DNA of 64,000 nucleotides, taken from contig JAFVRJ010000008.1 of assembly GCA_017504305.1 (NCBI GenBank), positions 3,477 to 67,476 of the forward strand, read 5' to 3'. Source of the stretch: Clostridia bacterium. GTDB lineage: Bacteria; Bacillota; Clostridia; Christensenellales; DTU072. The position numbers and the translations under genes are program-made. The notes beneath the pieces are model-generated. The model ran no database searches. It saw only the letters and a program-made list of their open reading frames with translations, and was not told where the DNA came from. This document shows, one piece after another, positions 10,310 through 61,413 of this stretch (the stretch's first letter is position 1; every line of letters starts with the position of its first letter).

Positions 10310-11008
10310 ATGAATATTGCTAAAATTTTAGAGTACCAAAAGCTTGATTTAGTTATTTATAAGGCGGATAGAGATTACGTCAATAGTAACGAAAACAAAA
10401 AGTATCAAGCAGTAAGAGCCAATATTATCGAGATCACCGAATCGTTAATTAAACTCGATAAAGAGGCTGCAGACATTTTTGCTGATATCGAAAAGCTTAA
10501 GACTTTGCTTGACGCATTTGTAAAAAAGTCAAAATCCACTCCATTGACCGGAGCAAAAACGCTTGACCAAGCAGATAAGCTTGATGAAACTATCGGCGCT
10601 CTTGACAGTGAGCTAAACGGCCTTGATAAAGAGTTACAAAAGTCGTTTAAGCGTCTTAATGAGATCTCCCGCGAGGCTAAAGAGTTGAGTAGTAAGTATG
10701 CTGCACTCAAGGTTGAACTCAAAAAGGTTGAGGAATTACGTAAACAAAAGAGAACTGAAATCATCAACTCAATCAACAAAGAGGGCAATCTTTTGAACGA
10801 GATGAAAGAGACCATGGATCCCAAGGATCTTGCAATTTACTCTCGTGCACGCGCAGCGAAAGTGAAGATGCCTATCGTTGTTGAGTATAAAGATGGACAC
10901 TGTGCAGCTTGCGGTATGGAGATTAAATCTGAAGTTGAGAATAAACTTCAAAACCCAGGCGATATAGCAGAGTGCCCAAACTGTAGGAGAATCGTTTATA
11001 AAAAATAA
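10310..11008 (+). CDS. Coiled-coil protein with C-terminal C4 zinc ribbon (COG1579/DUF164 type)
   Basis: Long heptad-rich region plus 'CAACGMEI...CPNCRRIV'. Usual neighbour of nif3. Confidence 0.75.
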   Translation: MNIAKILEYQKLDLVIYKADRDYVNSNENKKYQAVRANIIEITESLIKLDKEAADIFADIEKLKTLLDAFVKKSKSTPLTGAKTLDQADKLDETIGALDSELNGLDKELQKSFKRLNEISREAKELSSKYAALKVELKKVEELRKQKRTEIINSINKEGNLLNEMKETMDPKDLAIYSRARAAKVKMPIVVEYKDGHCAACGMEIKSEVENKLQNPGDIAECPNCRRIVYKK

Positions 11009-44314: not shown

Positions 44315-44345
44315 AAAGCACTGCAACGCAGTGCTTTTATTTTTC
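44315..44345 (+). terminator. Terminator after the DUF898 gene
   Basis: Hairpin aaagcactgc-aac-gcagtgcttt followed by a T-rich run. Confidence 0.75.
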
Positions 44346-44436: not shown

Positions 44437-44465
44437 TTGACACGTAGCGCGCGCGTATGTATAAT
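44437..44465 (+). promoter_or_regulatory. Consensus sigma-A promoter of the lipoprotein-RND operon
   Basis: TTGACA, 17 nt (cgtaGCGCGCGCGtatg), TATAAT. Lies 30 nt before ATG 44495. Confidence 0.7.
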
Positions 44466-44494: not shown

Positions 44495-45895
44495 ATGAAA
44501 TTTTTAAAAAAATATGTTATTATTACACTTCTTATTTCTATGGTTGCATGTCTTTTTGCATGTAACGACAATGAAGATGGTGGGACTTTAGTAAAAGAAG
44601 CATTTGCGACAGCAGTAGCCAATACTGACAACGCAAACGTTAAACAAATCAACTCGAATTTTGATTTAAAGTTTATTTTCTATGATGCTTCGGGTGTACC
44701 CTGTACCATCCACGAGAACCTTGCTTTACGTCGTATTAACGATGGACAAACCCAATATATGGATGGTTCTATTAAAACCGTAGAATTAGGCGGTTATATA
44801 GCTGATCTGCTTAATATGGCCTCCGGTTCTTTAGGTGAGCTTACACAAGAACCTGCTTTCATGGCGATGCTCAACTTTATAAACGGTATCGATTACGTAG
44901 CCTTCCGTGCCGCATTGCATGAAGACTCTTTAAATGTACAACTTGAAAGGGTGCCGGTTACCGAACAACCTCAATATAATTTTAGTGATACCGGTGCAGA
45001 GATGCTTGAGCTTAAGGGCGGTTGGTTTGGCGCAAGTTATGCTGAATTTAAAACCTTTCAAGCAGAAAGCGATTTTAAAGTTATGAGGGAGTTCGATCTA
45101 CTTGACACCGTCATGATGCTTTCATTGCTTCCTGCCGACTGGTCTAAAGCCGTTGACTCTGCAGATGCTCAAAAAGTAGATTATAACGGCGTTGAAGCAA
45201 ATCAATATAGGCTTGCTCTTAATAGGGACGTTATTATTCCCTTCGTCAGATCAACTATTGAGCAAGGTATGCTCGATTTGTTTGGTGAAGATCAAGAGTT
45301 TTATAATGAACTAAACGGCTATTATACTCGCCACGCTGATAAGGTAGTCGATATGTTCACTGTGCCGGATCATACGGTTATTGCTTATACCGATGCATCC
45401 AATCGATTAATGCATACCGAATCCAATTGGGATCTTAAATTCTCAATCAATGTAGATGAAATAGTTGCGATCATGAGAGAAGAAGGCGTTAAGGAGGAAG
45501 AAATCACTGAATTTTCTTCGGTTTTGACGCTTGCTAACACTTTGTTCTTTGGTAGTAGCAATCAATTGAAAGGCGAGTTTGAGTTCGGCTTTAAGATTAC
45601 CATTACCGAAGATTATGCCTACGACAATATTTCTATCGACAAGAGTACTTCATTATTTACTCCGTATGAACAAACTGTTCCCGGCAGATATACTTTTGGC
45701 ATAACGAAGGACGATAAGGGTGAATATAAGTACGTTGAAACCAACGTTCCTTCTGCAGTAGCGGAATATAAAGCTCAAAAGAAGGCTGAAGAAGAAGCTA
45801 AAAAGGCCGAGGAAGAGGCTAAAAAGAAAGCTGAAGAGGAAGCTAAAAAAGAAAACGGTAGCACACAAGAAGGTGGCGGAACCGCGACGACTTAA
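44495..45895 (+). CDS. Lipoprotein of unknown function with a C-terminal (AEEEAKK)n tail
   Basis: Signal peptide plus lipobox 'VACLFAC'. 466 aa. C-terminal 'KKAEEEAKKAEEEAKKKAEEEAKKENG'. Confidence 0.75.
   Translation: MKFLKKYVIITLLISMVACLFACNDNEDGGTLVKEAFATAVANTDNANVKQINSNFDLKFIFYDASGVPCTIHENLALRRINDGQTQYMDGSIKTVELGGYIADLLNMASGSLGELTQEPAFMAMLNFINGIDYVAFRAALHEDSLNVQLERVPVTEQPQYNFSDTGAEMLELKGGWFGASYAEFKTFQAESDFKVMREFDLLDTVMMLSLLPADWSKAVDSADAQKVDYNGVEANQYRLALNRDVIIPFVRSTIEQGMLDLFGEDQEFYNELNGYYTRHADKVVDMFTVPDHTVIAYTDASNRLMHTESNWDLKFSINVDEIVAIMREEGVKEEEITEFSSVLTLANTLFFGSSNQLKGEFEFGFKITITEDYAYDNISIDKSTSLFTPYEQTVPGRYTFGITKDDKGEYKYVETNVPSAVAEYKAQKKAEEEAKKAEEEAKKKAEEEAKKENGSTQEGGGTATT
45785..45853 (+). 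repeat. Three tandem 21-24-nt units encoding AEEEAKK
   Basis: gctgaagaagaagctaaaaag / gccgaggaagaggctaaaaagaaa / gctgaagaggaagctaaaaaagaa. Confidence 0.8.
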
Positions 45896-45960: not shown

Positions 45961-48900
45961 ATGCTTTCCAAATATAGCGTTAAGAAGCCTCTTACCGTAG
46001 TTGTTGCGGTAATTATAGTAATTTTATTAGGTGTCGTTTCATATACAAGCCTTGGCGTTGATTTATTGCCGGAAATGGAGCTTCCGTATTTAATTGTTGT
46101 CACTGTTTACGCCGGCGCCGAGCCAGATACAGTTGATAACGAAGTAACCACCCCTTTAGAGGAGTCTTTTGCGACTGTTTCAGGCGTTAAAAGGATAAAT
46201 TCTACCTCTAACGAGCATTACTCGATGATTATTTTAGAGCTTGAGCCGGATAAGGATTCCGCGGCGATGAAGGCGAACCTTAAGGATGCTATTGATTTAA
46301 CTACGCTCCCTGATTCCGATATGCTTGTCGATCCGATGATTATTGAGCTTGATCCCAGTATGCTACCGGTTATGAGCATGAGTGTTAGTTACGATAGCGA
46401 TGACAACGATGCTAAAAATGCATATTTAAAAGAGGTTATTTCTAAACTTAACGCAGTTGATGGCGTTGCTAATATTTCGGAAAGCGGTTTTGTTTCCAAT
46501 TACGTATATTTAAATGCTAATTCTCAAAAGACTTCCAAGCATTTGATCGAGGCATTGGAAGAAAAATTCGGTATTCAATTTGAAATTTCCGAGGAGCTAA
46601 AAGAACAGATACGTGTTGAGCTACGCGATATCGTCAAGGATGCCGAGTCTAACGACTCGCTAAAAACCGAGGGAGAAGTTGATCCTCAAAAGGTTTTAGA
46701 TGCTTTATTAAAAGAGCTTGTTAAAGGCACGGGCGCCGATAGTACCAATAAAGATAATATTATAGGTGAATTCGTTAACGATTACGTTATAAGCGAGTTC
46801 GGTGTAGATGGTGCCGCTCGTACTGCTGCAATTGCTTTTATTAAGATTGCGCTTGAAAACTCATATATTTTAGAAGATGGAGAGGAAAACCAAGCGATTT
46901 ATAACAGTTTGGTCGACGGGCTAATTGATACTACGGTTACCAACTTTGTTGAAGGCTATATGGGGTCGATGCTCAACGTTTTGAGTGAAGACATATTTAA
47001 ACAACTTATTTATGCACAAGACTTCGACATGCCCGCAGGCAGTCTTAAAGAAGGTGCAACGAGTTCGGTTGTAAAGGTCGGCGATAATATTGAAAACCGT
47101 GAAGACTTTATGACTCTACCTGTCTTTACTGTTGACGTTGCACAAGTGCTTCAAGACTATATCGAAAGAATTCGTACCATTTTGTCGCTTGTCGCGACTA
47201 TGAGCGAAGACGGTAAAATAAGTCTTTCGGATGATGATTTAAAGTCTCTTGCATACTCTATCGCAAAGCAAACGCAATCTAACGTTGATTATGCGGAGTG
47301 GGTTGTTGATACCTTAACTTCAGAAAGCGCATATAGCGTTTATTACATATCAAATCCCGCTCAAAAACAATGGGTTGATATGCTCAAGGCAGAGTATCTT
47401 GATGCAGAAAAGACGCTCAACAATCCGTTTTACGATTTAACCGCATCGTGGTCCGATGTTGTACCTATAGAGTGGCGTACAAAGCTTTTAGATTGTGTTG
47501 ATGAAAACGACCTTTTCTTACCCGATGGTGCGATTATTTCGGAAGCCGTTAATTGGGACCAAAGCTACTCTGAATATTATGCCAATAGGTTTGCTTTGAG
47601 CGCTACCGCTTCGATAGCGGATAAACCTCAAGCGGGTAATTACAGAGCATATGCTGATTTAGTAACTTCGCAAGTAACAACGCTTTCACAAGAAAAGGTA
47701 TTGGTTTGGCATGCATATTTGCTTGAAAATGCTTCTTTTAAGTCAGCGGTGGATAATATTACCAATACACCTAAAGCGGATTGGCAAGTAAGTATTTTAG
47801 ATGCTGTGTTGGATGATAGGATTTATCCCGATGATTGGTCTTTTGCTGATAGAACAGGGACGTATCTCGCACTTCAAGTTGCTAAAAATACTCTTACTGC
47901 CAATAGACCCTCCGGCGCAGAAGCCTATGCACGTCTTGCTATTTACAGCGTTGCGGTAACGCAACCGGAAGGCGATTATTACATTTCGCAATCGGCTCGC
48001 GAAGCGTGGGTTCAAACTATTGCTTCAAACGAAGCATTTGTTTCTTTTATTGATACCATTGCCGATAGCGACGACTATATGTATATGGTTTACGACTATC
48101 TTGCAAAGGATGCTAAAGCATACGTTGATGCCGAGAATAAAGAGGGGCTTTCGACGTTATTGCCCGTTGGCTCTGTTGTAAAAGAAGCAAACGTTTGGGA
48201 TGATACGGACAAAGCATTATTCAAAGCAGCAATTGCAAGCAATAAGGTCAATTTTGCATCTGTCGAAGCTTCTCAAAACGAACTAAAGGAAGCCATGGGC
48301 GAAGAACTTTATAACGATTATTATAATTTCTTCCGTAATCGCTCGGCAGAAGACGTATATCAACTATTTAAGGACGTTCTTAACGTCATAGGCGACTTTG
48401 GTGGAGAGGGTGCTGTAACCGAGACCAAAGACACTGAAAGTGGTAAAATAACCCATAAGATTGACGTCCGCAAAATAGAAAACGCGTTAGAACAAAAGAG
48501 TGATGATATTAAAATCACTTTAAAAATGTACGGCCTTTGCGACGTTACTTTCCTCGATGATCTTTCGACACAAGTAACAAAACTTATCCTTGGCATCGAT
48601 AAGGATGACGTTAATATTAGTAACTCTATTCAATTGAGCGTTGATAAAGAGCCGAGCGCTTCAAGTGCCGAGGTTACCAAAGAGCTTAAAGCTGTTCTTG
48701 AAGATATAGCTAAAAAAGATAGTAAATTCAGCTATACCGTTTTAACGGACGATGGCTTGATTATCGACTTTATGTTGGATTCCGTTTTATCAAGCTTATT
48801 GATAGGCGGTTTACTTGCTCTTATAATACTTATATTCTTCCTTAAGGACATCAAGGCTACCCTTGTTATAGGAAGCTCGATTTTGATTAGCGTTTTGACG

Positions 48901-51900
48901 GCAGTAACGCTTATGTATTTTACCGGCGTAAGCCTAAACGTTATATCTCTTGGTGGCTTAACGCTTGGTGTTGGTATGCTTGTAGATAACTCTATTGTTG
49001 TTCTTGAAAACACATATAGGTTAAGGGCAAAGGGCTTTACCGTGTTACAAGCAGCAGTACAGGGCGCGAAGCAAATGCTACCTGCAATCTTCGCTTCAAC
49101 CTTAACTACTATTGTAGTATTCTTGCCGATAGTATTTATTTCCGGTCTTGTAAAAGAAATCTTTTTAGATTTCGCATTGACGATTATTTACTCATTGGGC
49201 GCATCTCTTATTGTGTCGACGACAGTAGTGCCTATGGCTTATAACAGCTTTATGAATCCTTTAGATCTTGGCAAGCAATCTGCTTTAGGTAAAAAGATTA
49301 GGGGCAATAAGCTTTATAAAGCGTTTAATTCCGGCGGTGTTTTGGTAGAAGGTAAAATAGCCCTTAGCGTTAAAAAGGCTTACGTTAAACTATTGAATTG
49401 GTCTTTAAGATTTAAGTTTGTTCCGATCATATTGGTTATTGCTTTGTTTGCAAGCAGTATATACCTTGCATTTACAGGTGGCACGGAATATTTCCCCGAT
49501 TCATACATGGGCTATATCTCAGTTAGTGTAAGTATCGATACTACTAAAATTGATAAAATTAATGAAGGATTAGAGCCTTCCAGTGATAAGTATTATACAT
49601 ATTCGGATGCCGAACAAGACGTTGTAGATACCTTAATTCAAACATTTAGTAAATATAAAGATATTAACGCGGTGGGCGTATCTCGCTCAACCGGCATGTC
49701 GATCGGCGGTATGAATCTTGGTTCGGGTAATATCAATGCAACACTAACTTTGATTGACGAAAAGGATCGTGAGCTTACCGCTCAACAAATTGTTAACGAG
49801 CTTGACAAGGAACTCGATAAGAATGCCAACGGATTGTTTACGTCTTCAGTTTCGATGTATTCATTGTCTTCGTTAATATCGATGTCTGGTGGTTCAATGA
49901 GTTTGTATCTGTACGGTGACGACTACTCGAAGATGCAACAAGAATCGAAAGCTCTTGCGGAAATACTATCAAAAATCGATGGCGTAATTTCCGTTGACGA
50001 CGGCGTCGATGAGGCCAATAAAGAATACAAAATAATAATTGATAAAAATAAAGCAAACCTTTATGGCTTAACGGTTGCTCAAGTTTATTTGCAAGTAAGT
50101 GCAGCTCTTACCGAACCTGCATCTTTGCATACTCTTAAGCTCGACGGCTCTGATAATTCAGGAATAGAAAACTTAAACGTTTATCTATATGACTCTGAAT
50201 ATAATTCGAAGTATTGGTACGCCGGCGTAGATCAAAACGGTAATGATTTGAAAGTATATTTTAAAAACAACGTGTCCGATAATGATTCCGGCTCGTTCAA
50301 CACTTACTACATTAAGAGCGGATTCAATCAAGACACTTACGTTCGTTCAACTATAAACGGTGTACAAAAAGTTCAGCTTGTTCAAAAGGGTGATTTAATA
50401 GAATGTTCACGCGTTGGTAATAAAATTTCTTATGAGTACGCAAACGTCGTTGAACAAGAGGACGGAACTCACCTCATAAACTATACTCCGGTTGAGGTTA
50501 CAATAAACGAGGAGATTAAGTATTACTCTAACGTACGTAATGACATCGATATTTTGACTTTGCCCATTACGTCCGCAAATATGCTTGATGAAAACGCCGA
50601 AACCGAGCAAGTTCCGTTATATAAATTATTGAGCGACGACTGTCTCTTGCGTGATAATAACGGCAATATAATGTATCGCTCATCTATAAACGATGAATTA
50701 ATACCTGTTGGCATACAGCTTGTGGACGGTTACACCTCGATACATCACCAAGAAAGACAAAAATGCATTACACTGACAGTCAATTACAACGAGGATATTA
50801 ATAGTGATACTATTAAGGGTCTTGTGGACGTTGAAGTAGCTAAATACAATAAAACCAAGCCTGTTGGAATCACCGTTTCGACTACGAGATCTCAAGGCGT
50901 TATGGACGGCGTATTTGAAGATTTATTTATGGTGCTTGGTGTTGCAATCATACTAATATTCCTTGTTATGGTTGCTCAGTTCCAATCCTGGAAGTCACCC
51001 TTCATTGTCATGGGAACGGTTGTGCTTGCGTTTACGGGAAGCTTTATAATGTTATGGGCGACCGGGGAGAAGTTGAGCATTATGGCTCTAATCGGTCTTA
51101 TAATTTTGATGGGCGTTGTCGTAAACAACGGGATAGTATTCGTTGATTATGCTAACAACTTGATTGAAAAGGGTTATAGTCGTAGAGAAGCCATGTTAAA
51201 GACAGGCGCAGATAGATTACGTCCGATTATAATGACGGCAATTACCACAGTTTTAGGTATGATGGGTATGGCGCTTGATGGAAGTGACTATGGCTCGTTG
51301 CTACAACCGCTTGCAATTACTTCAATAGGCGGTATGGTGTACGCTACAATTATGACTCTCTTTATCGTCCCGATATTGTACGAATTATTCAATCGTAAGA
51401 CTGGTAAACGTGCGGCTCGTGCTGCTGAATACCGCAACTCTACCCTTGATTTCAAAGAGGATGAGTTTGATCAAGTTGAAAACGACGTTGATAGATTTAT
51501 TAAGTCTGTCGTCAACACCAAAACGGAGGCAAAGGAGCAAGTTTCTGTATCTAAAGATACGGAAAAGCCCGAAAATGCCAAGAACTCGATACGTAAGACG
51601 TCGGCATTATTGCGAGCAATCAAAGGTGGAAAAATAAGAATATATCCGCTCATTGTTGGTTACGTAACTGAAAAATCTAAATGCTTAAGTAAAAAACGTC
51701 ATATAGCCGAAAAGAAAGCCGTTAATGCGTATTTAATAGAATCGCCTAATGGCATTATTCTTGTAAATGCAGGTGTTTCCAACGAGATTCGCTCAAGTAA
51801 AAAAGTTGCAAAACTTTACAAAAAGTATTATGCTAACGTAGAGCTTCCGCAAGGAACTGCAATTAACGAACAATTGTCGGCGCGGGGATATAGTTCTTCA

Positions 51901-52278
51901 GATATTGATTGCGTAGTACTCACCGATTTATCACTGATTAATGCAGGCGGACTTCAATTGGTTAAAAATGCAAAAAAGGTGGTCTACGTTAAAGATAACT
52001 TTAAGAAGCTTGATAAAAAATCGAATAAGCTACTTAAAGAATATTCAGCTGAATTAAACGTTGAGGTTCTCGATTGTTCTATGCCCCATGACTTACTTGG
52101 CGATTCAAAGATATTAATTGATTCTGTTAAAGTAAAAAAATCCGACGTTAATTTCCTAAAAGTTATCGGAGCGGAACAATCAGTTGCTTTAGGGGTACCT
52201 TCTGACGTTGTAGTTGAAGCCACTAAAGTGCTTAATACTTACTTAAAGGATACCAATCTAAAAATGTTGGAAATTTAA
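45961..52278 (+). CDS. Giant RND-superfamily transporter (AcrB/HAE-like) with expanded loops and a C-terminal degenerate MBL (AHL-lactonase-like) domain
   Basis: The N-terminus 'KKPLTVVVAVIIVILLGVVSYTSLGVDLLPEMELPYLIVVTVYAGAEPDTVDNEVTTPLEE' is typical of RND permeases. TM clusters lie at aa ~940-1150 and ~1653-1813. 2105 aa, against ~1040 for AcrB. RBS AAGGAG. Confidence 0.85.
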   Translation: MLSKYSVKKPLTVVVAVIIVILLGVVSYTSLGVDLLPEMELPYLIVVTVYAGAEPDTVDNEVTTPLEESFATVSGVKRINSTSNEHYSMIILELEPDKDSAAMKANLKDAIDLTTLPDSDMLVDPMIIELDPSMLPVMSMSVSYDSDDNDAKNAYLKEVISKLNAVDGVANISESGFVSNYVYLNANSQKTSKHLIEALEEKFGIQFEISEELKEQIRVELRDIVKDAESNDSLKTEGEVDPQKVLDALLKELVKGTGADSTNKDNIIGEFVNDYVISEFGVDGAARTAAIAFIKIALENSYILEDGEENQAIYNSLVDGLIDTTVTNFVEGYMGSMLNVLSEDIFKQLIYAQDFDMPAGSLKEGATSSVVKVGDNIENREDFMTLPVFTVDVAQVLQDYIERIRTILSLVATMSEDGKISLSDDDLKSLAYSIAKQTQSNVDYAEWVVDTLTSESAYSVYYISNPAQKQWVDMLKAEYLDAEKTLNNPFYDLTASWSDVVPIEWRTKLLDCVDENDLFLPDGAIISEAVNWDQSYSEYYANRFALSATASIADKPQAGNYRAYADLVTSQVTTLSQEKVLVWHAYLLENASFKSAVDNITNTPKADWQVSILDAVLDDRIYPDDWSFADRTGTYLALQVAKNTLTANRPSGAEAYARLAIYSVAVTQPEGDYYISQSAREAWVQTIASNEAFVSFIDTIADSDDYMYMVYDYLAKDAKAYVDAENKEGLSTLLPVGSVVKEANVWDDTDKALFKAAIASNKVNFASVEASQNELKEAMGEELYNDYYNFFRNRSAEDVYQLFKDVLNVIGDFGGEGAVTETKDTESGKITHKIDVRKIENALEQKSDDIKITLKMYGLCDVTFLDDLSTQVTKLILGIDKDDVNISNSIQLSVDKEPSASSAEVTKELKAVLEDIAKKDSKFSYTVLTDDGLIIDFMLDSVLSSLLIGGLLALIILIFFLKDIKATLVIGSSILISVLTAVTLMYFTGVSLNVISLGGLTLGVGMLVDNSIVVLENTYRLRAKGFTVLQAAVQGAKQMLPAIFASTLTTIVVFLPIVFISGLVKEIFLDFALTIIYSLGASLIVSTTVVPMAYNSFMNPLDLGKQSALGKKIRGNKLYKAFNSGGVLVEGKIALSVKKAYVKLLNWSLRFKFVPIILVIALFASSIYLAFTGGTEYFPDSYMGYISVSVSIDTTKIDKINEGLEPSSDKYYTYSDAEQDVVDTLIQTFSKYKDINAVGVSRSTGMSIGGMNLGSGNINATLTLIDEKDRELTAQQIVNELDKELDKNANGLFTSSVSMYSLSSLISMSGGSMSLYLYGDDYSKMQQESKALAEILSKIDGVISVDDGVDEANKEYKIIIDKNKANLYGLTVAQVYLQVSAALTEPASLHTLKLDGSDNSGIENLNVYLYDSEYNSKYWYAGVDQNGNDLKVYFKNNVSDNDSGSFNTYYIKSGFNQDTYVRSTINGVQKVQLVQKGDLIECSRVGNKISYEYANVVEQEDGTHLINYTPVEVTINEEIKYYSNVRNDIDILTLPITSANMLDENAETEQVPLYKLLSDDCLLRDNNGNIMYRSSINDELIPVGIQLVDGYTSIHHQERQKCITLTVNYNEDINSDTIKGLVDVEVAKYNKTKPVGITVSTTRSQGVMDGVFEDLFMVLGVAIILIFLVMVAQFQSWKSPFIVMGTVVLAFTGSFIMLWATGEKLSIMALIGLIILMGVVVNNGIVFVDYANNLIEKGYSRREAMLKTGADRLRPIIMTAITTVLGMMGMALDGSDYGSLLQPLAITSIGGMVYATIMTLFIVPILYELFNRKTGKRAARAAEYRNSTLDFKEDEFDQVENDVDRFIKSVVNTKTEAKEQVSVSKDTEKPENAKNSIRKTSALLRAIKGGKIRIYPLIVGYVTEKSKCLSKKRHIAEKKAVNAYLIESPNGIILVNAGVSNEIRSSKKVAKLYKKYYANVELPQGTAINEQLSARGYSSSDIDCVVLTDLSLINAGGLQLVKNAKKVVYVKDNFKKLDKKSNKLLKEYSAELNVEVLDCSMPHDLLGDSKILIDSVKVKKSDVNFLKVIGAEQSVALGVPSDVVVEATKVLNTYLKDTNLKMLEI

Positions 52279-52288
52279 AGGGTGAATT

Positions 52289-53524
52289 ATGCAATTACGA
52301 TATGATAAGGAAATTGTAAATTTTGAGGTTAGTAATAGTCGTCTAATTCGAGAGCTTTTACCCAATCCTGTTGAAGTGGATTCAATAGGGGTTGATGAAG
52401 TCAGACGCGCCCTTCTTAATCCTATAGGTTCTAAAAAGTTATCAGAGCTTGTAAAAGCCGGTGAAAAGGTATGCATTATAACAAGTGATATTACAAGGCC
52501 TATGCCGTCTAAAGTGTGCTTACCTCCGTTATTGGATGAGCTTAATCAATCTGGAGTAAAAGATAGTGATATTTTGATCGTTTTTGCTCTTGGATCTCAT
52601 CGCAACCATACCGAGGAAGAAATGCGTTATTTGGTTGGTGACGAAGTTTATGATAGGATAGAGTGCGTTGACTCCAATCCCGATCGTTGTAAGCGAATAG
52701 GTGTAACATCTAAAGGCACCGTCGTTGATATATTTGATAGGGTTGTCGACTCCGATTTTATCATTTGCATGGGGAATATAGAGTACCATTATTTTGCCGG
52801 GTATAGCGGTGGTGCTAAAGCCATAATGCCCGGGGTTTCAACCAAAGAAGCAATTAGGCAAAACCATAAGATGATGGTTGACCCGAGTGCTTATGCAGGC
52901 AATCTCAATAGCCCGGTTAGACTTGATATTGAGGAAGCTGGCGAACTTCTTGGCATTGATTTTATCCTTAACGTTGTACTTGATGAGCATAAACAAATTA
53001 TTAAAGCCGTTGCAGGGCATCCGGTAAAAGCGCATAGAGTTGGTTGTGCGTTTTTAGATGAACTTTATAGTGTCGGTATCAAGGAAAAAGCAAATATTGT
53101 TGTCGTTAGTGCAGGCGGTTATCCTAAAGACCAAAATATGTACCAAGCACAAAAGGCGTTGGACAACGCAAAGCACGCAGTAAAAGATGGCGGTATCATC
53201 ATATGGCTTGCTTCTTGTAAAGAAGGTTTGGGTAGCGCAGTCTTTGAACAATGGATGACGACTAAGTCGCCAAAGCAAATGATAGAAGATATTAAAAAGG
53301 ATTTTAAACTCGGTGGTCATAAAGCCGCAGCAATCTCTTTAGTGCTCGAAAACGCACGAATCTTTATGGTATCCGATCTTCCAGATGAACTGATTAAAGG
53401 CATCCATTTAGAGCCATTTGGTAGCCTTAACGATGCTTTTATCGAGGCGACTAAAATTCTCGGAGAAGATAGTACCGTTTACGTTATGCCTTATGGTGGC
53501 TCCACTTTGCCCAAGGAGTTATAA
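52289..53524 (+). CDS. larA: LarA-like protein (nickel-pincer-dependent lactate racemase family, DUF2088 N-terminus)
   Basis: 411 aa. 'ALGSHRNH' and 'HYFAGYSGGAKAIMPG' (cofactor-tethering Lys context), then 'NHKMM'. Confidence 0.75.
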   Translation: MQLRYDKEIVNFEVSNSRLIRELLPNPVEVDSIGVDEVRRALLNPIGSKKLSELVKAGEKVCIITSDITRPMPSKVCLPPLLDELNQSGVKDSDILIVFALGSHRNHTEEEMRYLVGDEVYDRIECVDSNPDRCKRIGVTSKGTVVDIFDRVVDSDFIICMGNIEYHYFAGYSGGAKAIMPGVSTKEAIRQNHKMMVDPSAYAGNLNSPVRLDIEEAGELLGIDFILNVVLDEHKQIIKAVAGHPVKAHRVGCAFLDELYSVGIKEKANIVVVSAGGYPKDQNMYQAQKALDNAKHAVKDGGIIIWLASCKEGLGSAVFEQWMTTKSPKQMIEDIKKDFKLGGHKAAAISLVLENARIFMVSDLPDELIKGIHLEPFGSLNDAFIEATKILGEDSTVYVMPYGGSTLPKEL

Positions 53525-54351
53525 TGAACTTTTTTGAATTAAAAGATGCATCTTTAAATGGCAAAACTATTGTATGTGCCCACCGTGGATCAATGGGCGC
53601 TAACGTTCCGTGCAATACGTTAGAGGCATTTCAAATTGCTCTTAATCAAGGAACGGATATTATAGAGCTTGACGTTACCAAGAGTAGGGACGGGGAGTTA
53701 TTTGTGTTTCATCCATACATGGATTTTGCACATCTCGGCAAGCTAATTCCCATGCAACTTAAAAGCAGTAAAGCTATCAAAAAGTTAAAGTATCGCAATT
53801 TTGATTTTGCTTTAACTCAATATGGTATACCTACTTTAGATGAAGCTTTTGAACTGCTAAAAGGTAGGTGCGTTATTAACATTGATAAGTTTTGGACTTG
53901 CCCTAAAGAAATAACAAAAAAGATTTACCAGCATGGTATAGAGAATAGCGTTATAATCAAGAGCAACGTTAACGAAAAAGACTTAAATGCCGTAGCAGAA
54001 ATCGCCCCCAAGTTACCATATATGCCTATGGTTAAAAGTTACTCGCAAGGGCTTGAGGATTATATAATCAATAAAGGCATCAAACTTGTTGCAGAGGAGC
54101 TTATATTTGAAGATTCTTCCAGCCCATTAGTATCTGATGAAAATCTTAAGATGCTAAATGATAGAGGTCTTTTAACTTGGGTAAACACCATTGTGTATTA
54201 TTATAAACGTGTTATTTCGGGAGGATATACCGACGATAAAGCGGTTGTTGGTAATCCTCACGATATATGGGGTTGGTGTCAACAAAAAGGCTTTAACGTT
54301 ATACAAACCGACTGGGTAGGTGAGTTAAAAAAATATCTAAATAACAATTAA
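53524..54351 (+). CDS. Glycerophosphodiester phosphodiesterase family protein
   Basis: 'VCAHRGS', 'IELDVTKSRDGELFVFHP'. The start overlaps the larA-like stop. Confidence 0.8.
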   Translation: MNFFELKDASLNGKTIVCAHRGSMGANVPCNTLEAFQIALNQGTDIIELDVTKSRDGELFVFHPYMDFAHLGKLIPMQLKSSKAIKKLKYRNFDFALTQYGIPTLDEAFELLKGRCVINIDKFWTCPKEITKKIYQHGIENSVIIKSNVNEKDLNAVAEIAPKLPYMPMVKSYSQGLEDYIINKGIKLVAEELIFEDSSSPLVSDENLKMLNDRGLLTWVNTIVYYYKRVISGGYTDDKAVVGNPHDIWGWCQQKGFNVIQTDWVGELKKYLNNN

Positions 54352-56291: not shown

Positions 56292-57188
56292 TTAATCTTC
56301 GTATAGGTGATACAATTCCATTTGGCGTATTACGTCGGGAATCGAGGTGATAACCGGACCAAGAGTACCGAGCTTAATAGATCCCATTGCCGCTGCATAG
56401 CTTAAAGAGTTTTGTGTTCCTCCAAAAAGTCTACCTAAAATATAAGTGGTAAAAATGGTAGTACCTCTGCCAATTCTACCGGCCCTGACCTTACTGTATA
56501 AATTTTCCTTATAGAAGTTATCTTCCTCGTCTAAAACGTACACCTCGTTACCCTTGGTGATCATAACTTCGTTTGCACCCCAAGACTTTATTATATCGCA
56601 AGCTTCCCTAATGTCGGTAGTTCCGGTGAGAATCTCTGCTTCAAAGCCGTTTGCCTTTACAAAATCACAATATGGAAGTAGTTCCTTTTTATGTTTATAA
56701 TCTTTTATCGTAATCCGACCTGACGTAGGGTCAACGTGATTCATAAACGCTTGCATATCGACAGCAATCATGCCCTTTGTGGCGTAATACTTTATGGTGT
56801 CAAGAGGAAAGTCGCCGTATACGTCGCCTGCAAAATAATATAGGAAGGTATCAACTTCCGGAATATTATCGATTTGAAATGGCGCGCCCTTTTGCAAACA
56901 TACTTTTTCTACCGCTTCTCTATCGGAATTAGGCATGTTGTTTTCAAAAGCGGCAGTCCTTCCATTGAATTTTGAGTACAAGCAACCTGAGATTCCCCAT
57001 ACCTTTTTTAACATCTTTTCGTCATGTTTTGATAATTTAGTAACCAAGGCATAATCTTTTTGTAATGATGCTGCAACGTAAGAAGCATACAAACAAGCAC
57101 CGCCTTCTATTACCACGTAATTATCGTAGCAGTCGGTGTTTTGCTCCATTGCAATATTGCCTATGATTACTATTTCATGCTTTGTCAT
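56292..57188 (-). CDS. PfkB/ribokinase-like carbohydrate kinase family protein (atypical C-terminal motif)
   Basis: 298 aa. N-terminal 'VIEGGACLYAS' (GG motif region). The C-terminus has 'GRIGRGTTIFTTY' where GAGD is expected. Confidence 0.55.
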   Translation of the reverse strand: MTKHEIVIIGNIAMEQNTDCYDNYVVIEGGACLYASYVAASLQKDYALVTKLSKHDEKMLKKVWGISGCLYSKFNGRTAAFENNMPNSDREAVEKVCLQKGAPFQIDNIPEVDTFLYYFAGDVYGDFPLDTIKYYATKGMIAVDMQAFMNHVDPTSGRITIKDYKHKKELLPYCDFVKANGFEAEILTGTTDIREACDIIKSWGANEVMITKGNEVYVLDEEDNFYKENLYSKVRAGRIGRGTTIFTTYILGRLFGGTQNSLSYAAAMGSIKLGTLGPVITSIPDVIRQMELYHLYED

Positions 57189-57877
57189 TATAGATTGTAC
57201 GTTTTTAATTCCTCAACTGCGATAATAGCGTCGTTACCGTTAAAAAATTCATCGGGGGATTGATAGGGCGTAACGTGCGTTGCCAAAATTTTGACGCCCG
57301 TTTTATCAACAATCTCGAGTGCTTTATCAGCGCTCATGTGTGGTCCCTTGAAGCCAATAGGCTTGGAACAATCTGCTAAAAGGTAATCGGATTTACTTGC
57401 AAGGCGCAATACGTTATCACAAAAGACCGTGTCACCAGTAATTCCTAATCGCTTATTTCCGGTTATTAAAACGCCGTGATTGGTTACCGGATGTTGCATT
57501 TTATAAAACTCAAGCTTAAGTTCACCAATTTGTAAATTAGTGTTTTCGTCGACATGATGCACCTCGAATCGTTTGTGTTCGAGTAGCGTTTTTGCCCAAG
57601 GAGTATCTTCTAAATGGGTATAGACTTTTAGTGTGTGGTTAAGGTCATCGAGTAGGTATCGCATGGGTAAAAGGTCTGAAGTGTGATCAAAGTGCAAATG
57701 GGTTAGGTATATTGCGCTTATGGTTTTTAGGTCACATATCTCCATTAGTCGCCCGAGTACCCCCGTGCCACAATCAACTAATATTTTAGTATCGCCTTGC
57801 CTTATCAAATAGCCACTACAAGCGCCGTTTTTACCTTGGGGATAGGGGCCGTATTTGCCCAAAATAGTTAGCTTCAT
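57188..57877 (-). CDS. MBL-fold metallo-hydrolase
   Basis: Intact 'LTHLHFDHTSD'. 229 aa. Its stop overlaps the start of the downstream PfkB-like gene. Confidence 0.8.
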   Translation of the reverse strand: MKLTILGKYGPYPQGKNGACSGYLIRQGDTKILVDCGTGVLGRLMEICDLKTISAIYLTHLHFDHTSDLLPMRYLLDDLNHTLKVYTHLEDTPWAKTLLEHKRFEVHHVDENTNLQIGELKLEFYKMQHPVTNHGVLITGNKRLGITGDTVFCDNVLRLASKSDYLLADCSKPIGFKGPHMSADKALEIVDKTGVKILATHVTPYQSPDEFFNGNDAIIAVEELKTYNL

Positions 57878-58004: not shown

Positions 58005-58041
58005 TTATACATAAAACTATGTCTTTGACAAGGTGACTCGT

Positions 58042-61000
58042 ATGCGAAAAGAACACAAACTTACAATTTTATTAGCTTTTATTCTCATTTTGGTCGTATG
58101 CATGGCTGCTTGCACTACAGGCGGTGGTAGTGATTATACGCTCAAACTTGTTGATGAAGTGGAATATTTTGAGTTTACTGCCGGTCAAATCGATTGGTCC
58201 AAAATCGTCTTTAACGTTCTTGATAAGGATGGCTATTTGATAAGTGTTGTTACCGCTACCGAGTCTATGGTATCAAGCGAGGACCTTGCAAAGCTTACCA
58301 CCAGTGGTATCAAAACGATCACCATAACTTACCAAGGAAGTAAATTAGAATTAGATTTTCATCTTATTCCCGCAGATGCAGCCACCGAGTTTACCGTAGT
58401 CTTTAATGCAGGCCTTGGCACTTTTAACGAAGATGGAAGCGTTACTGAAGGATCTAACATTAAAACATTTGTTGGATCAACTCTTGATGCTATTCCTGTT
58501 CCTACTCGCGCAGGTTACGATTTTGTAGGTTGGTTTGAGGACGAAAACGCTACCGGCGATATATTAGTTACGCCTTATGCGCTCAAGCGTAATATGAATC
58601 TATATGCTAAATGGTCCGATCAACGCAAATTTACCGTTAGCTACTATTTGTTCCATGACGACGTTAGTCTTGGCTTGGTAAGTAGCGTTAATAGAATTGA
58701 ATATGGCACTAAAGTATCCTTTATAAGCGCTGAACAAAAGCAAGGGCTTACCTTTGAAGGATACGAAGTTTGGAATAGCGATGAGGTTTATGACAGCGAA
58801 ACCTCTACCTTTATTCCCGCAAATCAACAAGATGCCTTCAACTGGGTTGTTACTTCCAACGTTTCAGTTAAGTTGCAATACTCAACCCACATGATAACTA
58901 TTTCATACGTATCTTCTGCATGGAAAGAAGGGGATGTCGTTGACGGAGTTACCATTATCGATGGTGGCACGGTCAATGGCGAAAAACTTGGGAAATATAC
59001 TACTCAAGTACCGTATGGCACCAATTTAGTTGCTAACCAATCACCCGTTCCCGTACTTCCTGAGAAAGATGGTCATAGCGGACTTTGGATTGACGACGTA
59101 ACCGGCAAAGAACCAATCTATGGTGTTTTAACTACCGAAATCAACGTTACTGCTCGTTATACGATTAATCAATACTCGATGTATTTCTACGACGAGAATT
59201 TGAATTTGCTTGAAAATTTAACTCGTACCGTTGATTACAATTCCTATATTGCTACAGAACCTAACGTCCCCACTAAAACCGGTCATATTGGTCTGTGGAT
59301 GGTATATAACGATGGTTTTGATGACTCGGTATTGGATGGACAACTTATCCAAATTTCTCTTAAACAACTTGCAATGACTAAAGATATTAACGTTTATGCG
59401 ATTTATAATCCCGAACGTTATCCCATCAATTTCTATTATAAAATGCAAGGTATGGACGAATTCCATAAAGAATCTTTCACTTATTCGTATGGAACTACTA
59501 TCGATAGAGCAATTGACATGACTTCCGACAAAGTCATAGACGGCATTACTTATAAGGGATATGATCCAAAATATTATGATTTCGAGTGGTATACTAACGA
59601 TGCTTATTTGAAGCAAGTAGTATTCCCCGACGACGTAGTTGCGGAAGCTCAATACTACTGTAAAGTAGTTGTTAAACCTTATCAAGTAGAATTCCGCTTG
59701 CCTTCAAACATCCAAAATTCAACAATCAGACCTGAAATTAAGACGATTCCCGTAGGCGAAAGAGTGGTTCCGCCGTCGTGGATTTTGGATTCACACACCA
59801 TTATGGGTTGGTATTATACTGCGGAAACACCTGACTACGATGCAGATAAGTCCTATAAAGTTGGCGACTACGTATATTACTATGAGCAAAGCTATAAATG
59901 CATTTCGGCTGCTACCGCTGGCGTACTACCTACCAATACTCTCTATTGGAAGCAAGAGGTTAACACCGTTCGTTTCTTTAATAGTTCGGGAGCAAGCGAT
60001 GGCATCGAGGTTAACGACTTCCATCTCTATGACGAAATCGAAAGAAATGATAGGGCTTTCTATGCTATATTACAAATTAAGAAGTTTAACGTAAGCTTCT
60101 ATAATATGACTTTTAATGCTGATAACCAAAAAGCATTTACTCAAGTAGCTTCAGCACAATTCGATTACGGCACTACAGACGTTCAGTCTGCAGTAGCTTC
60201 AGTCGTATTAAATAAGCCCGAATATACCAACGGCGTCGTTTCTTCTTTTGAATTTGAAAATTGGTATCTTGATGAAGAATTTAAAACGTTAGCCGTCGAG
60301 CTTGACAACCTTGCGCCTATTACCGGCGACGTAAAGATTTATGCTAAATGGGTTGATGCAATGGTCGGTACTGAGGGTCTTATTTATGAAGCATACAACG
60401 ATGGTCTTGCCGTAGTTGGCTTTGAGCCGGATATCGCAGAGTACTCTGTAATCAAATTGCGTATACCCGAAACCTACGACGGAAAGAATGTTCTTGCTAT
60501 TGGTAGTGAAGTATTCAATAACTTTGCCAAAGTTATCTTTATCGAGTCGATGGTATTGCCCTCAACTCTTGTTGATATTGCAGAAAATGCCTTTGCTGGT
60601 TGTTATGCACTTAAGAGTATCGAGAATAATTCGAATAGTTTTGTTGTTGAAAACGGCGTATTGTATAATGCAGATAAGTCGGTAATTATCTTGGCTATAC
60701 CTCAATATGAAAACGGCTTAGACGCATTTACCGTTCCTGCATCCGTTAAGAAGATTGGCATAGGTGCTTTCAATAATGTTGCTTCGCTTACCGAGATTTC
60801 GTTTGAAGCTAACTCTCAATTAACTGAAATTGGCGACTATGCGTTTGATGGATGTATCAACTTATCAAAGATAGCTCTCACCGAAAGTTTAGTACGTATT
60901 GGTGACTATGCTTTCCGTGGATGCGTATCTCTTGGAACTCAATCAATCAGTATTCCCGGAAGTAACAATCTTAAGAAAGTTGGATTCGGTTCCTTCGACG

Positions 61001-61413
61001 ATTGTTTGAGCGCTCTCAATAAGATTGGCAACTACCTTGTCATTGGTGGAGTCTTGGTCAAATACGTTGGAACAGAAACTAATCTTGTACTCGATAACTC
61101 AATAGTTGCGATTGCAGACGGCGCCTTCGCATATTCTCAATCTGATGCGGCAAGTTCTAACTTTGAAATTACAAATATTGAGGTTGGGCCTGATTCCAAA
61201 CTTGTCTACATTGGTAGTAAAGCTTTTGCTAACTGTTCTGCTCTTGCTCGTATTGATTTGAAAACAGCTTCAATGGTTGAAGTTGAAAATGATACTTTTG
61301 TTAACGTATCTTACTCTTGCAAGCTATACGTAAAAACTTCATTGGTTAGCATATATGAAGCCAATGAATATTATTTGAATAGTTTTGGTGCAGAAAATAT
61401 TATAGGAGCATAA
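58042..61413 (+). CDS. Large surface lipoprotein: Listeria-Bacteroides (InlB B-repeat/Flg_new) repeats + BspA-type leucine-rich repeats
   Basis: ATG 58042. Lipobox 'CMAAC'. Repeated 'GY.F.GW...........LYAKW'-type modules (e.g. AGYDFVGWFEDENATGD...LYAKW, FEFENWYLDEEF...IYAKW). The C-terminal ~350 aa has a '...IG..AF..C..L..I.'-type LRR. Confidence 0.8.
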   Translation: MRKEHKLTILLAFILILVVCMAACTTGGGSDYTLKLVDEVEYFEFTAGQIDWSKIVFNVLDKDGYLISVVTATESMVSSEDLAKLTTSGIKTITITYQGSKLELDFHLIPADAATEFTVVFNAGLGTFNEDGSVTEGSNIKTFVGSTLDAIPVPTRAGYDFVGWFEDENATGDILVTPYALKRNMNLYAKWSDQRKFTVSYYLFHDDVSLGLVSSVNRIEYGTKVSFISAEQKQGLTFEGYEVWNSDEVYDSETSTFIPANQQDAFNWVVTSNVSVKLQYSTHMITISYVSSAWKEGDVVDGVTIIDGGTVNGEKLGKYTTQVPYGTNLVANQSPVPVLPEKDGHSGLWIDDVTGKEPIYGVLTTEINVTARYTINQYSMYFYDENLNLLENLTRTVDYNSYIATEPNVPTKTGHIGLWMVYNDGFDDSVLDGQLIQISLKQLAMTKDINVYAIYNPERYPINFYYKMQGMDEFHKESFTYSYGTTIDRAIDMTSDKVIDGITYKGYDPKYYDFEWYTNDAYLKQVVFPDDVVAEAQYYCKVVVKPYQVEFRLPSNIQNSTIRPEIKTIPVGERVVPPSWILDSHTIMGWYYTAETPDYDADKSYKVGDYVYYYEQSYKCISAATAGVLPTNTLYWKQEVNTVRFFNSSGASDGIEVNDFHLYDEIERNDRAFYAILQIKKFNVSFYNMTFNADNQKAFTQVASAQFDYGTTDVQSAVASVVLNKPEYTNGVVSSFEFENWYLDEEFKTLAVELDNLAPITGDVKIYAKWVDAMVGTEGLIYEAYNDGLAVVGFEPDIAEYSVIKLRIPETYDGKNVLAIGSEVFNNFAKVIFIESMVLPSTLVDIAENAFAGCYALKSIENNSNSFVVENGVLYNADKSVIILAIPQYENGLDAFTVPASVKKIGIGAFNNVASLTEISFEANSQLTEIGDYAFDGCINLSKIALTESLVRIGDYAFRGCVSLGTQSISIPGSNNLKKVGFGSFDDCLSALNKIGNYLVIGGVLVKYVGTETNLVLDNSIVAIADGAFAYSQSDAASSNFEITNIEVGPDSKLVYIGSKAFANCSALARIDLKTASMVEVENDTFVNVSYSCKLYVKTSLVSIYEANEYYLNSFGAENIIGA

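Follow-up and report, generated by a model that had tools for sequence, protein, structure and literature searches.

The locus described here raises the question of what has become attached to the cytoplasmic end of a membrane transporter in an uncultured gut Clostridium, and whether the addition does anything. The window, by which we mean the whole stretch of 64,000 nucleotides that was analysed (positions 3,477 to 67,476 of contig JAFVRJ010000008.1 in assembly GCA_017504305.1), contains a single uninterrupted open reading frame (ORF) at 45961-52278 on the + strand, with its stop codon at 52276-52278, that encodes a protein of 2105 amino acids. Most of this protein is a resistance-nodulation-division (RND) permease. 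Its C-terminal ~220 amino acids are a degenerate metallo-beta-lactamase (MBL)-fold domain derived from a gene of the AiiA-like lactonase family. The parts of the coding region are as follows.

45961-51399, + strand: RND body, amino acids 1-1813 (Pfam and NCBIfam stretches, hydropathy)
51400-51627, + strand: cytoplasmic linker of ~75 amino acids, common to tail-less orthologues (C-terminal alignment with these orthologues)
51628-52122, + strand: MBL-fold region homologous to AiiA-like lactonases, tail residues ~4-168 (NCBIfam, phmmer, BLASTP, hhalign, AlphaFold2/Foldseek)
52123-52275, + strand: last 51 amino acids, with no detectable MBL homology (hhalign, AlphaFold2 confidence)

Pfam ACR_tran (PF00873) matches the ORF in three stretches with E=5.8e-147 (491 bits against a cut-off of 28), which identifies the product as an RND permease, and several NCBIfam RND models match in both halves. 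The hydrophobic segments at amino acids 4-37, 932-1175 and 1646-1811 form the RND pattern, these being clusters from the hydropathy plot and not single helices. The scores against the multidrug subfamily models are far below the cut-off of 1250 bits (421.9 for NF033617 and 281.5 for NF000282), and the product is best described from its sequence as a divergent Gram-positive RND protein with a 700-amino-acid insertion, so that a substrate class should not be inferred. The insertion itself (amino acids ~180-880, nucleotides ~46498-48600) lies in the first extracytoplasmic loop, has no Pfam or NCBIfam match and is the fastest-evolving part of the body, with 46% identity between the two lineages discussed below. 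Giant size, 1.5-2.1 thousand amino acids, is common to a whole clade of Clostridia RND proteins.

The last hydrophobic segment stops at about amino acid 1811 (...PILYELFNRK, to amino acid 1813) and 292 amino acids remain beyond it, in line with the ~290 given in an earlier note that had been made from the letters of the window. In RND proteins the part beyond the last helix is cytoplasmic, and this established topology would place the 292 amino acids in the cytoplasm. The first portion is the linker, which closes with a basic amphipathic segment (...IRKTSALLRAIKGG); what follows is referred to below as the tail. No other frame across the tail region has an ORF of 80 or more amino acids, and a consensus scan of the + strand at the junction (51.4-51.7 kb) found no promoter-like or terminator-like site; the nearest promoter-like match on that strand, at 51152-51180, is within the RND body.

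Several kinds of search connect the tail with lactonases. The NCBIfam models AHLLactAiiA (E=9.3e-8), AttM (1.5e-4) and YtnP (2.4e-4) all match it, as do those for AhlS and 4-pyridoxolactonase. The match to the AiiA equivalog model NF045699 covers profile positions 5-149 of 251 and reaches 31.6 bits against a cut-off of 375, well short of membership in the equivalog. Pfam Lactamase_B (PF00753) also scores below its gathering threshold (14.5 bits against 22.7, E=0.034), and because of this the Pfam annotation misses the domain; those of the nearest stand-alone homologues that were tested pass the same model with 50-67 bits. An exhaustive phmmer search of 1.84 billion representative sequences with the tail gave 57 matches at E<=1e-3, the best at 7e-15. 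All 57 are stand-alone proteins, ~235-325 amino acids long when complete (mostly 245-295), with many others being shorter fragments. When the tail and linker together were compared with PDB sequences by phmmer, one weak and irrelevant match was the only result. A direct BLASTP alignment of the tail with AiiA (sequence of PDB 2a7m) has E=8e-5 and agrees exactly with the pairing proposed in the earlier note, YLIESPNGIILVNAGV with YLLETEEGPILVDTGMP and GYSSSDIDCVVLTDLSLINAGG with GYEPDDLLYIISSHLHFDHAGG.

The strongest comparison is an hhalign match between the two fused tails (the second is introduced below) and 32 stand-alone homologues, with a probability of 99.75% and E=2.9e-27; it is not circular, as the target consisted of stand-alone sequences only. 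The match spans tail residues 6-168, from the first beta-strand through the DLLGD (DLFGDG) element. A profile made from the tails plus 11 stand-alone homologues matches AiiA structures at 3.5e-35, a value dominated by those 11 homologues. Judged by these matches, the tail is a homologue of the MBL-fold, AiiA-like lactonases, with a similarity far beyond chance, and the homology can be demonstrated for about three-quarters of it (residues ~4-168). The collinearity that had been proposed for the last ~215 amino acids therefore stands for ~165 of them and fails for the last ~50-65.

An AlphaFold2 model of the tail, built on a 13-sequence alignment, has a mean predicted local distance difference test (pLDDT) score of 78.8 and a predicted template modelling score of 0.79. 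The pLDDT is 74-97 across most of residues 4-168, with lower values at residues 21-30 (~55) and 131-140 (~64), and it is below 50 at residues 196-219. Foldseek of this model against the PDB returns the quorum-quenching lactonases AaL, AhlX, AiiA and GcL at the top, with E~1e-11 and template modelling (TM) scores of 0.63-0.69. Demonstrable homology together with the predicted alpha-beta/beta-alpha sandwich fold place the tail in the MBL superfamily, as had been expected of it, with the last ~50 amino acids remaining outside this support.

If the fold is that of a lactonase, the active site is not. Two features are of particular importance.

51766-51768, + strand: Asn codon (AAT) in LVNAG, at the conserved Asp of DTG (alignment table)
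51925-51942, + strand: degenerate HxHxDH motif, reading D-L-S-L-I-N, that is, H104D, H106S, D108I and H109N in AiiA numbering (alignment table, BLASTP)

The codons at 51913-51951 encode VVLTDLSLINAGG (V-V-L-T-D-L-S-L-I-N-A-G-G), and this direct reading bears out the proposal that every ligand of HxHxDH has been replaced; the Asn predicted for the Asp of VDTG is likewise present. The window's tail has only two His residues, at no ligand position and neither in the C-terminal 60 amino acids, and the tail of the second lineage has one. In AiiA-type enzymes, it is the metal centre and the C-terminal-half residues His169, Asp191, Tyr194 and His235 that hold the lactone. The tail's C-terminal part is ~34 amino acids shorter than its counterpart in the stand-alone enzymes and cannot be aligned with it, and the C-terminal 65 amino acids, compared alone with the family profile, show no similarity (hhalign probability 0.1%). 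Because the motif is D-L-S-L-I-N, the Asp is replaced in NAG, no ligand His is left and the C-terminal ligand region is shortened and unalignable, a canonical dinuclear-metal lactonase site is excluded for the predicted protein. The tail has neither HxHxDH nor the distal His, Asp and His of a catalytically competent MBL enzyme, and the loss of its catalytic residues is one of the two marks of a pseudoenzyme; the other, retention under purifying selection for a non-catalytic function, is where the two fused lineages differ (below).

Departures from the canonical motif also occur among free proteins. About half of the nearest stand-alone homologues (P0001-P0057) have HxDxDH instead of HxHxDH, and a few are degenerate and have NTG for DTG: P0017 (HLDADA), P0047 (HMETDV) and P0051 (DLRFYH). 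Since degenerate free proteins that share the Asp-to-Asn change exist, the gene that donated the tail may already have been non-canonical.

The fusion is not peculiar to the window. Fused ORFs drawn from ENA, NCBI and Logan show it intact in at least 13 independent assemblies from two lineages, with five full-length members in the window's lineage and nine in the second. The identical 2105-amino-acid protein is encoded on a 109-kb ENA contig (it is NCBI MBR2349471.1), and variants of the same length that are 98% identical occur in four further assemblies. The second lineage (P0061) has fused ORFs of 2090 or 2091 amino acids in nine assemblies and includes the GTDB species representative of a Candidatus Stercoripulliclostridium sp., whose fused ORF has 2090 amino acids. 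Between the two lineages, the RND bodies are 58.6% identical and the tails 35% (BLASTP E=9e-23). In the second lineage, the HxHxDH positions read S-A-E-N-Y-N (preceded by T) and DTG is LVNSG, again with Asn; the only other fused lineage found thus also has a dead motif, and the decay of one copy beside relatives with an intact motif does not account for the window. The Asp at the first His position in the window is Ser in this lineage, and no constellation of His, Asp, Glu or Cys is common to both fused tails at ligand positions.

The two tails have in common the junction sequence (...G-x-[IL]-R-I-Y-P-L), both Asn substitutions and a shorter N-terminal loop, and they end alike, with KDxxxKxLE[IL] at the extreme C-terminus; these shared derived features argue for one fusion event. 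The tail-less orthologues stop exactly where the MBL-like domain starts. When the RND bodies are placed in a neighbour-joining tree, the proteins with a tail form a paraphyletic group, (query,(P0061,(tail-less crown))), the query being the window's protein, and their monophyly has a bootstrap value of 0/100. One gain and one loss would probably be the simplest history, with long-branch effects being possible. In the distant giant RND loci L011 and L012, there is neither a tail nor an adjacent stand-alone lactonase gene that could have been the source of the fusion.

At the junction, codons 51619-51639 (K-G-G-K-I) read AAAGGTGGAAAAATA, in which a Shine-Dalgarno-like AGGTGG is followed 5 nucleotides downstream by ATA; the ATA is located where stand-alone homologues have Met, and in the second lineage this signal is less pronounced. 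This may be the fossil of a former gene start.

Three other scans bear on how widespread the fusion is. In a genome collection, scanning turned up a single additional fused locus and, besides it, a lactonase-like fragment from Bacteroides that is unrelated, and JGI metagenome contigs scanned with tail-derived patterns gave no relative. A word-index protein search with the tail alone returned nothing; it missed even the 98%-identical P0058 and is, therefore, blind to a small domain within a protein of two thousand amino acids. As neither fused lineage is among the phmmer matches, the 50%-identity representative library evidently represents both by tail-less relatives. The known distribution is two uncultured species, and a library of this kind hides such fusions.

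Whether the tail is under selection was examined with polymorphism counts from four genomes in each of the two fused lineages, expressed as the ratio of non-synonymous to synonymous polymorphism (pN/pS).

Body, both lineages: 192 synonymous, 110 non-synonymous; pN/pS 0.16
Tail, both lineages: 14 synonymous, 21 non-synonymous; pN/pS 0.41 (p=0.009 against neutral; Fisher p=0.0097 against the body)
Tail, window's lineage: 11 synonymous, 10 non-synonymous; pN/pS ~0.26 (p=0.003 against neutral; like the body)
Tail, Stercoripulliclostridium lineage: 3 synonymous, 11 non-synonymous; pN/pS ~0.9 (neutral-like)
Tail, C-terminal ~95 amino acids: 4 synonymous, 10 non-synonymous; pN/pS 0.61 (indistinguishable from neutral)

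The linker has a pN/pS of 0.22. Between the fused lineages, non-synonymous divergence (dN) is 0.77 in the tail and 0.34 in the body, and synonymous divergence (dS) is saturated. Despite this saturation, frames of ~200 codons are still open in both tails. That they have stayed open and homologous for so long would require purifying selection over most of that time, and the constraint on the tail is, by these sequence measures, real but relaxed and dependent on the lineage. Both tails are also basic, with an isoelectric point (pI) of 9.2-9.4 and net charges of +8 and +11, as opposed to a median pI of 6.65 and a median net charge of -2 in the stand-alone homologues. The G+C content is 0.350 in the tail (51619-52275) and 0.397 in the body (45961-51399); at third codon positions (GC3) the values are 0.28 and 0.38.

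What, then, is the tail for? The reading that we favour, to which we give an even chance, is that it is an accessory domain, basic, cytoplasmic and non-catalytic, which arose by gene fusion and whose importance is modest and depends on the lineage, and not a lactone sensor. The sequence shows the native N-terminus of a lactonase-like domain joined to the end of a disordered cytoplasmic tail that the pump already possessed; the ligands for the dinuclear metal are lost, as is about a third of what was the C-terminal half. With those parts gone, the domain cannot work as a canonical lactonase. The fusion is inherited, being present with a dead motif in both lineages, and was probably lost in their sister clade. 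Presumably, the tail would now act as a membrane-proximal domain (pI ~9.3) on the cytoplasmic face, and its likely job would be docking or structural, through contact with other proteins or the membrane, possibly with the co-translated LarA-like and GDPD products described below. Its contribution to fitness would be modest and unequal: the tail is constrained in the window's lineage and close to neutral in that of Stercoripulliclostridium, and the crown group does without it.

Several observations weigh against this reading. The alignment behind the structural model is dominated by true lactonases, and a single-sequence model is poor (pLDDT 47). As indicated above, constraint on the tail is significantly weaker than on the body (Fisher p=0.0097), and neither the second-lineage tail, at ~0.9, nor the last ~95 amino acids can be separated from neutral. 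Five related lineages (P0059, P0060 and P0062-P0064), with proteins of ~1600-1900 amino acids that are 59-61% identical, manage without the tail. Finally, the shift of the tail toward A+T fits either relaxed codon selection or a foreign donor of lower G+C content.

The main rival, to which we assign a substantial minority chance, is that the tail would be a functionless relic, formed when a neighbouring or inserted lactonase-like gene was fused through the loss of a stop codon, kept as a passenger only insofar as changes in it might truncate or misfold the pump, and heading for loss. In favour of a relic, the tail evolves faster than the body (35% against 59% identity, dN 0.77 against 0.34) and has a raised pN/pS, which is ~0.9 in the second lineage. 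Its catalytic residues are all gone and its C-terminal third is unrecognisable, its GC3 is shifted toward A+T, and the Shine-Dalgarno-like AAAGGTGGA followed by ATA is found at the expected stand-alone start codon. The crown group has, moreover, lost the tail cleanly, with synteny kept where it was examined; in P0059 (L004), the tail-less locus concerned, the gene order of lipoprotein, RND, LarA-like and GDPD genes is unchanged. However, a relic does not easily explain why the tail is open and homologous in both lineages through saturating synonymous divergence, nor why its pN/pS in the window's lineage is near the value of the body and significantly non-neutral. Residues of the fold core and the extreme C-terminus are conserved, and the tail has turned basic in both lineages alike, which looks directional. 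Because the constraint is relaxed and the crown clade has lost the tail, the relic nevertheless stays credible. The earlier note had regarded the tail as a pseudo-enzyme retained as a regulatory module; that it is dead as an enzyme is well supported, but its retention as a module is not, given its faster evolution, near-neutrality in one lineage and loss in the sister clade.

A more specific role, to which we give a smaller chance, would be that of a regulatory or docking pseudoenzyme that binds a metabolite, or the co-encoded LarA-like and GDPD enzymes, on the cytoplasmic side of the pump and so couples the supply of substrate, or a signal, to export. The narrower idea, put forward in the earlier note, that the dead domain still recognises a lactone-like or other small molecule and, by allostery, gates or tunes RND export is, in our opinion, unlikely. 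Its attraction is the ancestry of the tail in hydrolases of acyl-homoserine lactones (AHLs) and other lactones, the conservation of the N-terminal half and the precedents of PqsE (PMC8056388) and QsdH (PMC3466314). Nevertheless, lactone sensing is disfavoured because the elements that hold the lactone are gone, the metal ligands as well as a C-terminal half that is ~34 amino acids short and unalignable, and because the residues now standing in place of the motif differ from one fused lineage to the other (DLSLI and SAENY). The sister clade also dispenses with the module.

That the tail is still an enzyme, with a non-canonical active site, is very improbable. The HxDxDH motif in about half of the nearest stand-alone homologues indicates that the family tolerates changes of ligand, and the window's tail has an Asp at the first His position; however, that Asp is Ser in the other lineage, the two tails share no ligand constellation, and they have only two and one His residues. 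Least probable of all, to the point of being negligible, is an artefact in which a chimeric assembly or a missed stop codon or frameshift joined two genes, as the earlier note had wanted checked. Nothing was found in favour of it: the 2105-amino-acid ORFs, identical or at 98% identity, occur in five assemblies and those of 2090 or 2091 amino acids in nine more, a lineage with just 59% identity has the same junction, and the sole split assembly is broken in the RND core (at ~amino acids 1738-1745) and not at the junction. In this split assembly, a 15130-bp ENA contig from the window's lineage, the RND gene is divided into products of 1738 and 361 amino acids (P0181/P0182), owing to a misassembly or else to a strain whose pump is broken.

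The accessory domain that we favour can be compared with several known systems. The AiiA-type lactonases (AiiA 2a7m/3dha, AhlX, AaL 6cgy, GcL, AiiB and 4-pyridoxolactonase) resemble the tail in their N-terminal two-thirds and in predicted fold, and they begin with the same N-terminal beta-strand. The tail differs from them in having neither HxHxDH nor the Asp of DTG, and the region of His169, Asp191, Tyr194 and His235 is truncated or unrecognisable. Furthermore, these lactonases are near-neutral, stand-alone proteins, whereas the tail is basic and fused to a membrane transporter.

To our knowledge, folded cytoplasmic add-on domains are rare on RND pumps, and the tail of MmpL3 is the main example. 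MmpL3 belongs to the RND superfamily, and its C-terminal cytoplasmic domain is dispensable for transport but needed for localisation and interactions (PMC6656915). Like the window's pump, it has a cytoplasmic extension of ~200 amino acids past transmembrane helix 12, and a functional analogy is plausible; however, its domain does not have an MBL fold, and it comes from another organism and transports another substrate. QsdH of Pseudoalteromonas byunsanensis also combines a lactonase-type module with an RND permease in a single polypeptide, being an active AHL lactonase with a GDSL-hydrolase fold fused to an RND efflux protein (PMC3466314). In QsdH, the module is at the N-terminus, or in the first periplasmic loop, of a Gram-negative protein, whereas the tail in the Clostridium is MBL-fold, dead, C-terminal and cytoplasmic. 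The DNA-uptake channel ComEC/Rec2 resembles the window's protein in having an MBL-fold domain at the C-terminus of a polytopic membrane transporter; its domain, described as lying outside the cell, functions as a metal-dependent nuclease (PMC8579336) and is from another MBL subfamily.

Other MBL-fold proteins illustrate how the fold can serve when catalysis has been lost or is irrelevant. CPSF100 and INTS9 are non-catalytic MBL-fold proteins (PMC4819959), and PqsE is an MBL-fold enzyme whose key role with RhlR is independent of catalysis (PMC8056388). As in the role proposed for the tail, these use the fold for interaction or as a scaffold, but they are soluble, have known partners and belong to the beta-CASP nuclease and thioesterase subfamilies. 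A docking or structural role for the tail would be analogous to that of the C-terminal domain of MmpL3, to the CPSF100/INTS9 scaffolds and to PqsE.

The genes around the pump are of interest because some of their products could be partners of it. The relevant features are listed below.

44315-44337, both strands: bidirectional terminator-like hairpin that precedes the operon promoter (consensus scan)
44437-44465, + strand: consensus sigma-70-type promoter, perfect TTGACA-17-TATAAT, just upstream of the lipoprotein gene (consensus scan)
44495-45895, + strand: lipoprotein-like gene of 466 amino acids, with lipobox LFAC and C-terminal KKAEEEAKK repeats (ORF list, synteny)
52289-53524, + strand: LarA-like gene (Lar_N and LarA_C), starting 10 nucleotides past the RND stop (Pfam, synteny)
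53524-54351, + strand: GDPD-family phosphodiesterase gene (GDPD and DUF4996), overlapping the LarA-like stop codon (Pfam)
57188-57877, - strand: apparently intact MBL-fold gene (Lactamase_B_2, Apyc1-like), 5 kb downstream (Pfam)

The hairpin and the promoter define a four-gene operon consisting of the lipoprotein, RND, LarA-like and GDPD genes. Of the five relatives examined, four have a lipoprotein-like gene of 420-470 amino acids, with no Pfam match, ahead of their giant RND gene: L003, L004 (3590-4888), L005 (912-2249) and the distant outgroup L012 (226-1494). It is absent upstream of the giant RND gene in the other outgroup, L011. The lipoprotein-like protein is probably an extracytoplasmic partner of the pump. 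In the tail-less L004, a GC-rich hairpin and T-run (AAAGGGGTGATCACCCCTTTATTATATT) occupy 10700-10772 between the RND stop and the LarA-like start; the corresponding gap in the window is only 10 nucleotides (52279-52288).

The MBL-fold gene at 57188-57877 is syntenic in tail-bearing and tail-less relatives alike. Derivation of the tail from this Apyc1/RNase Z-like gene was considered and rejected, as the two have no meaningful similarity (E=0.08). Beyond it, 58033-61413 on the + strand encodes a predicted surface protein of 1126 amino acids with BspA-type leucine-rich repeats, a Listeria-Bacteroides repeat and a CBM_5_12 match.

RND pumps are usually viewed as bare permeases under transcriptional regulation. 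We found no RND permease described in the literature that has an MBL-fold domain at its C-terminus, and what is new here is both an RND permease varied by domain fusion and the setting in which an MBL-fold pseudoenzyme occurs, in an uncultured gut Clostridium. The locus and its relatives also provide a natural series of decay or repurposing, which runs from a stand-alone enzyme to a fused domain that is dead but constrained, to one that is fused and relaxed, and finally to one that is lost. An inherited cytoplasmic domain of enzymatic origin at the end of a Gram-positive RND pump would offer transporters of this class a new means of attaching partners or signals and, if the tail should prove to be a regulatory or docking pseudoenzyme, this would be the first RND transporter controlled by one.

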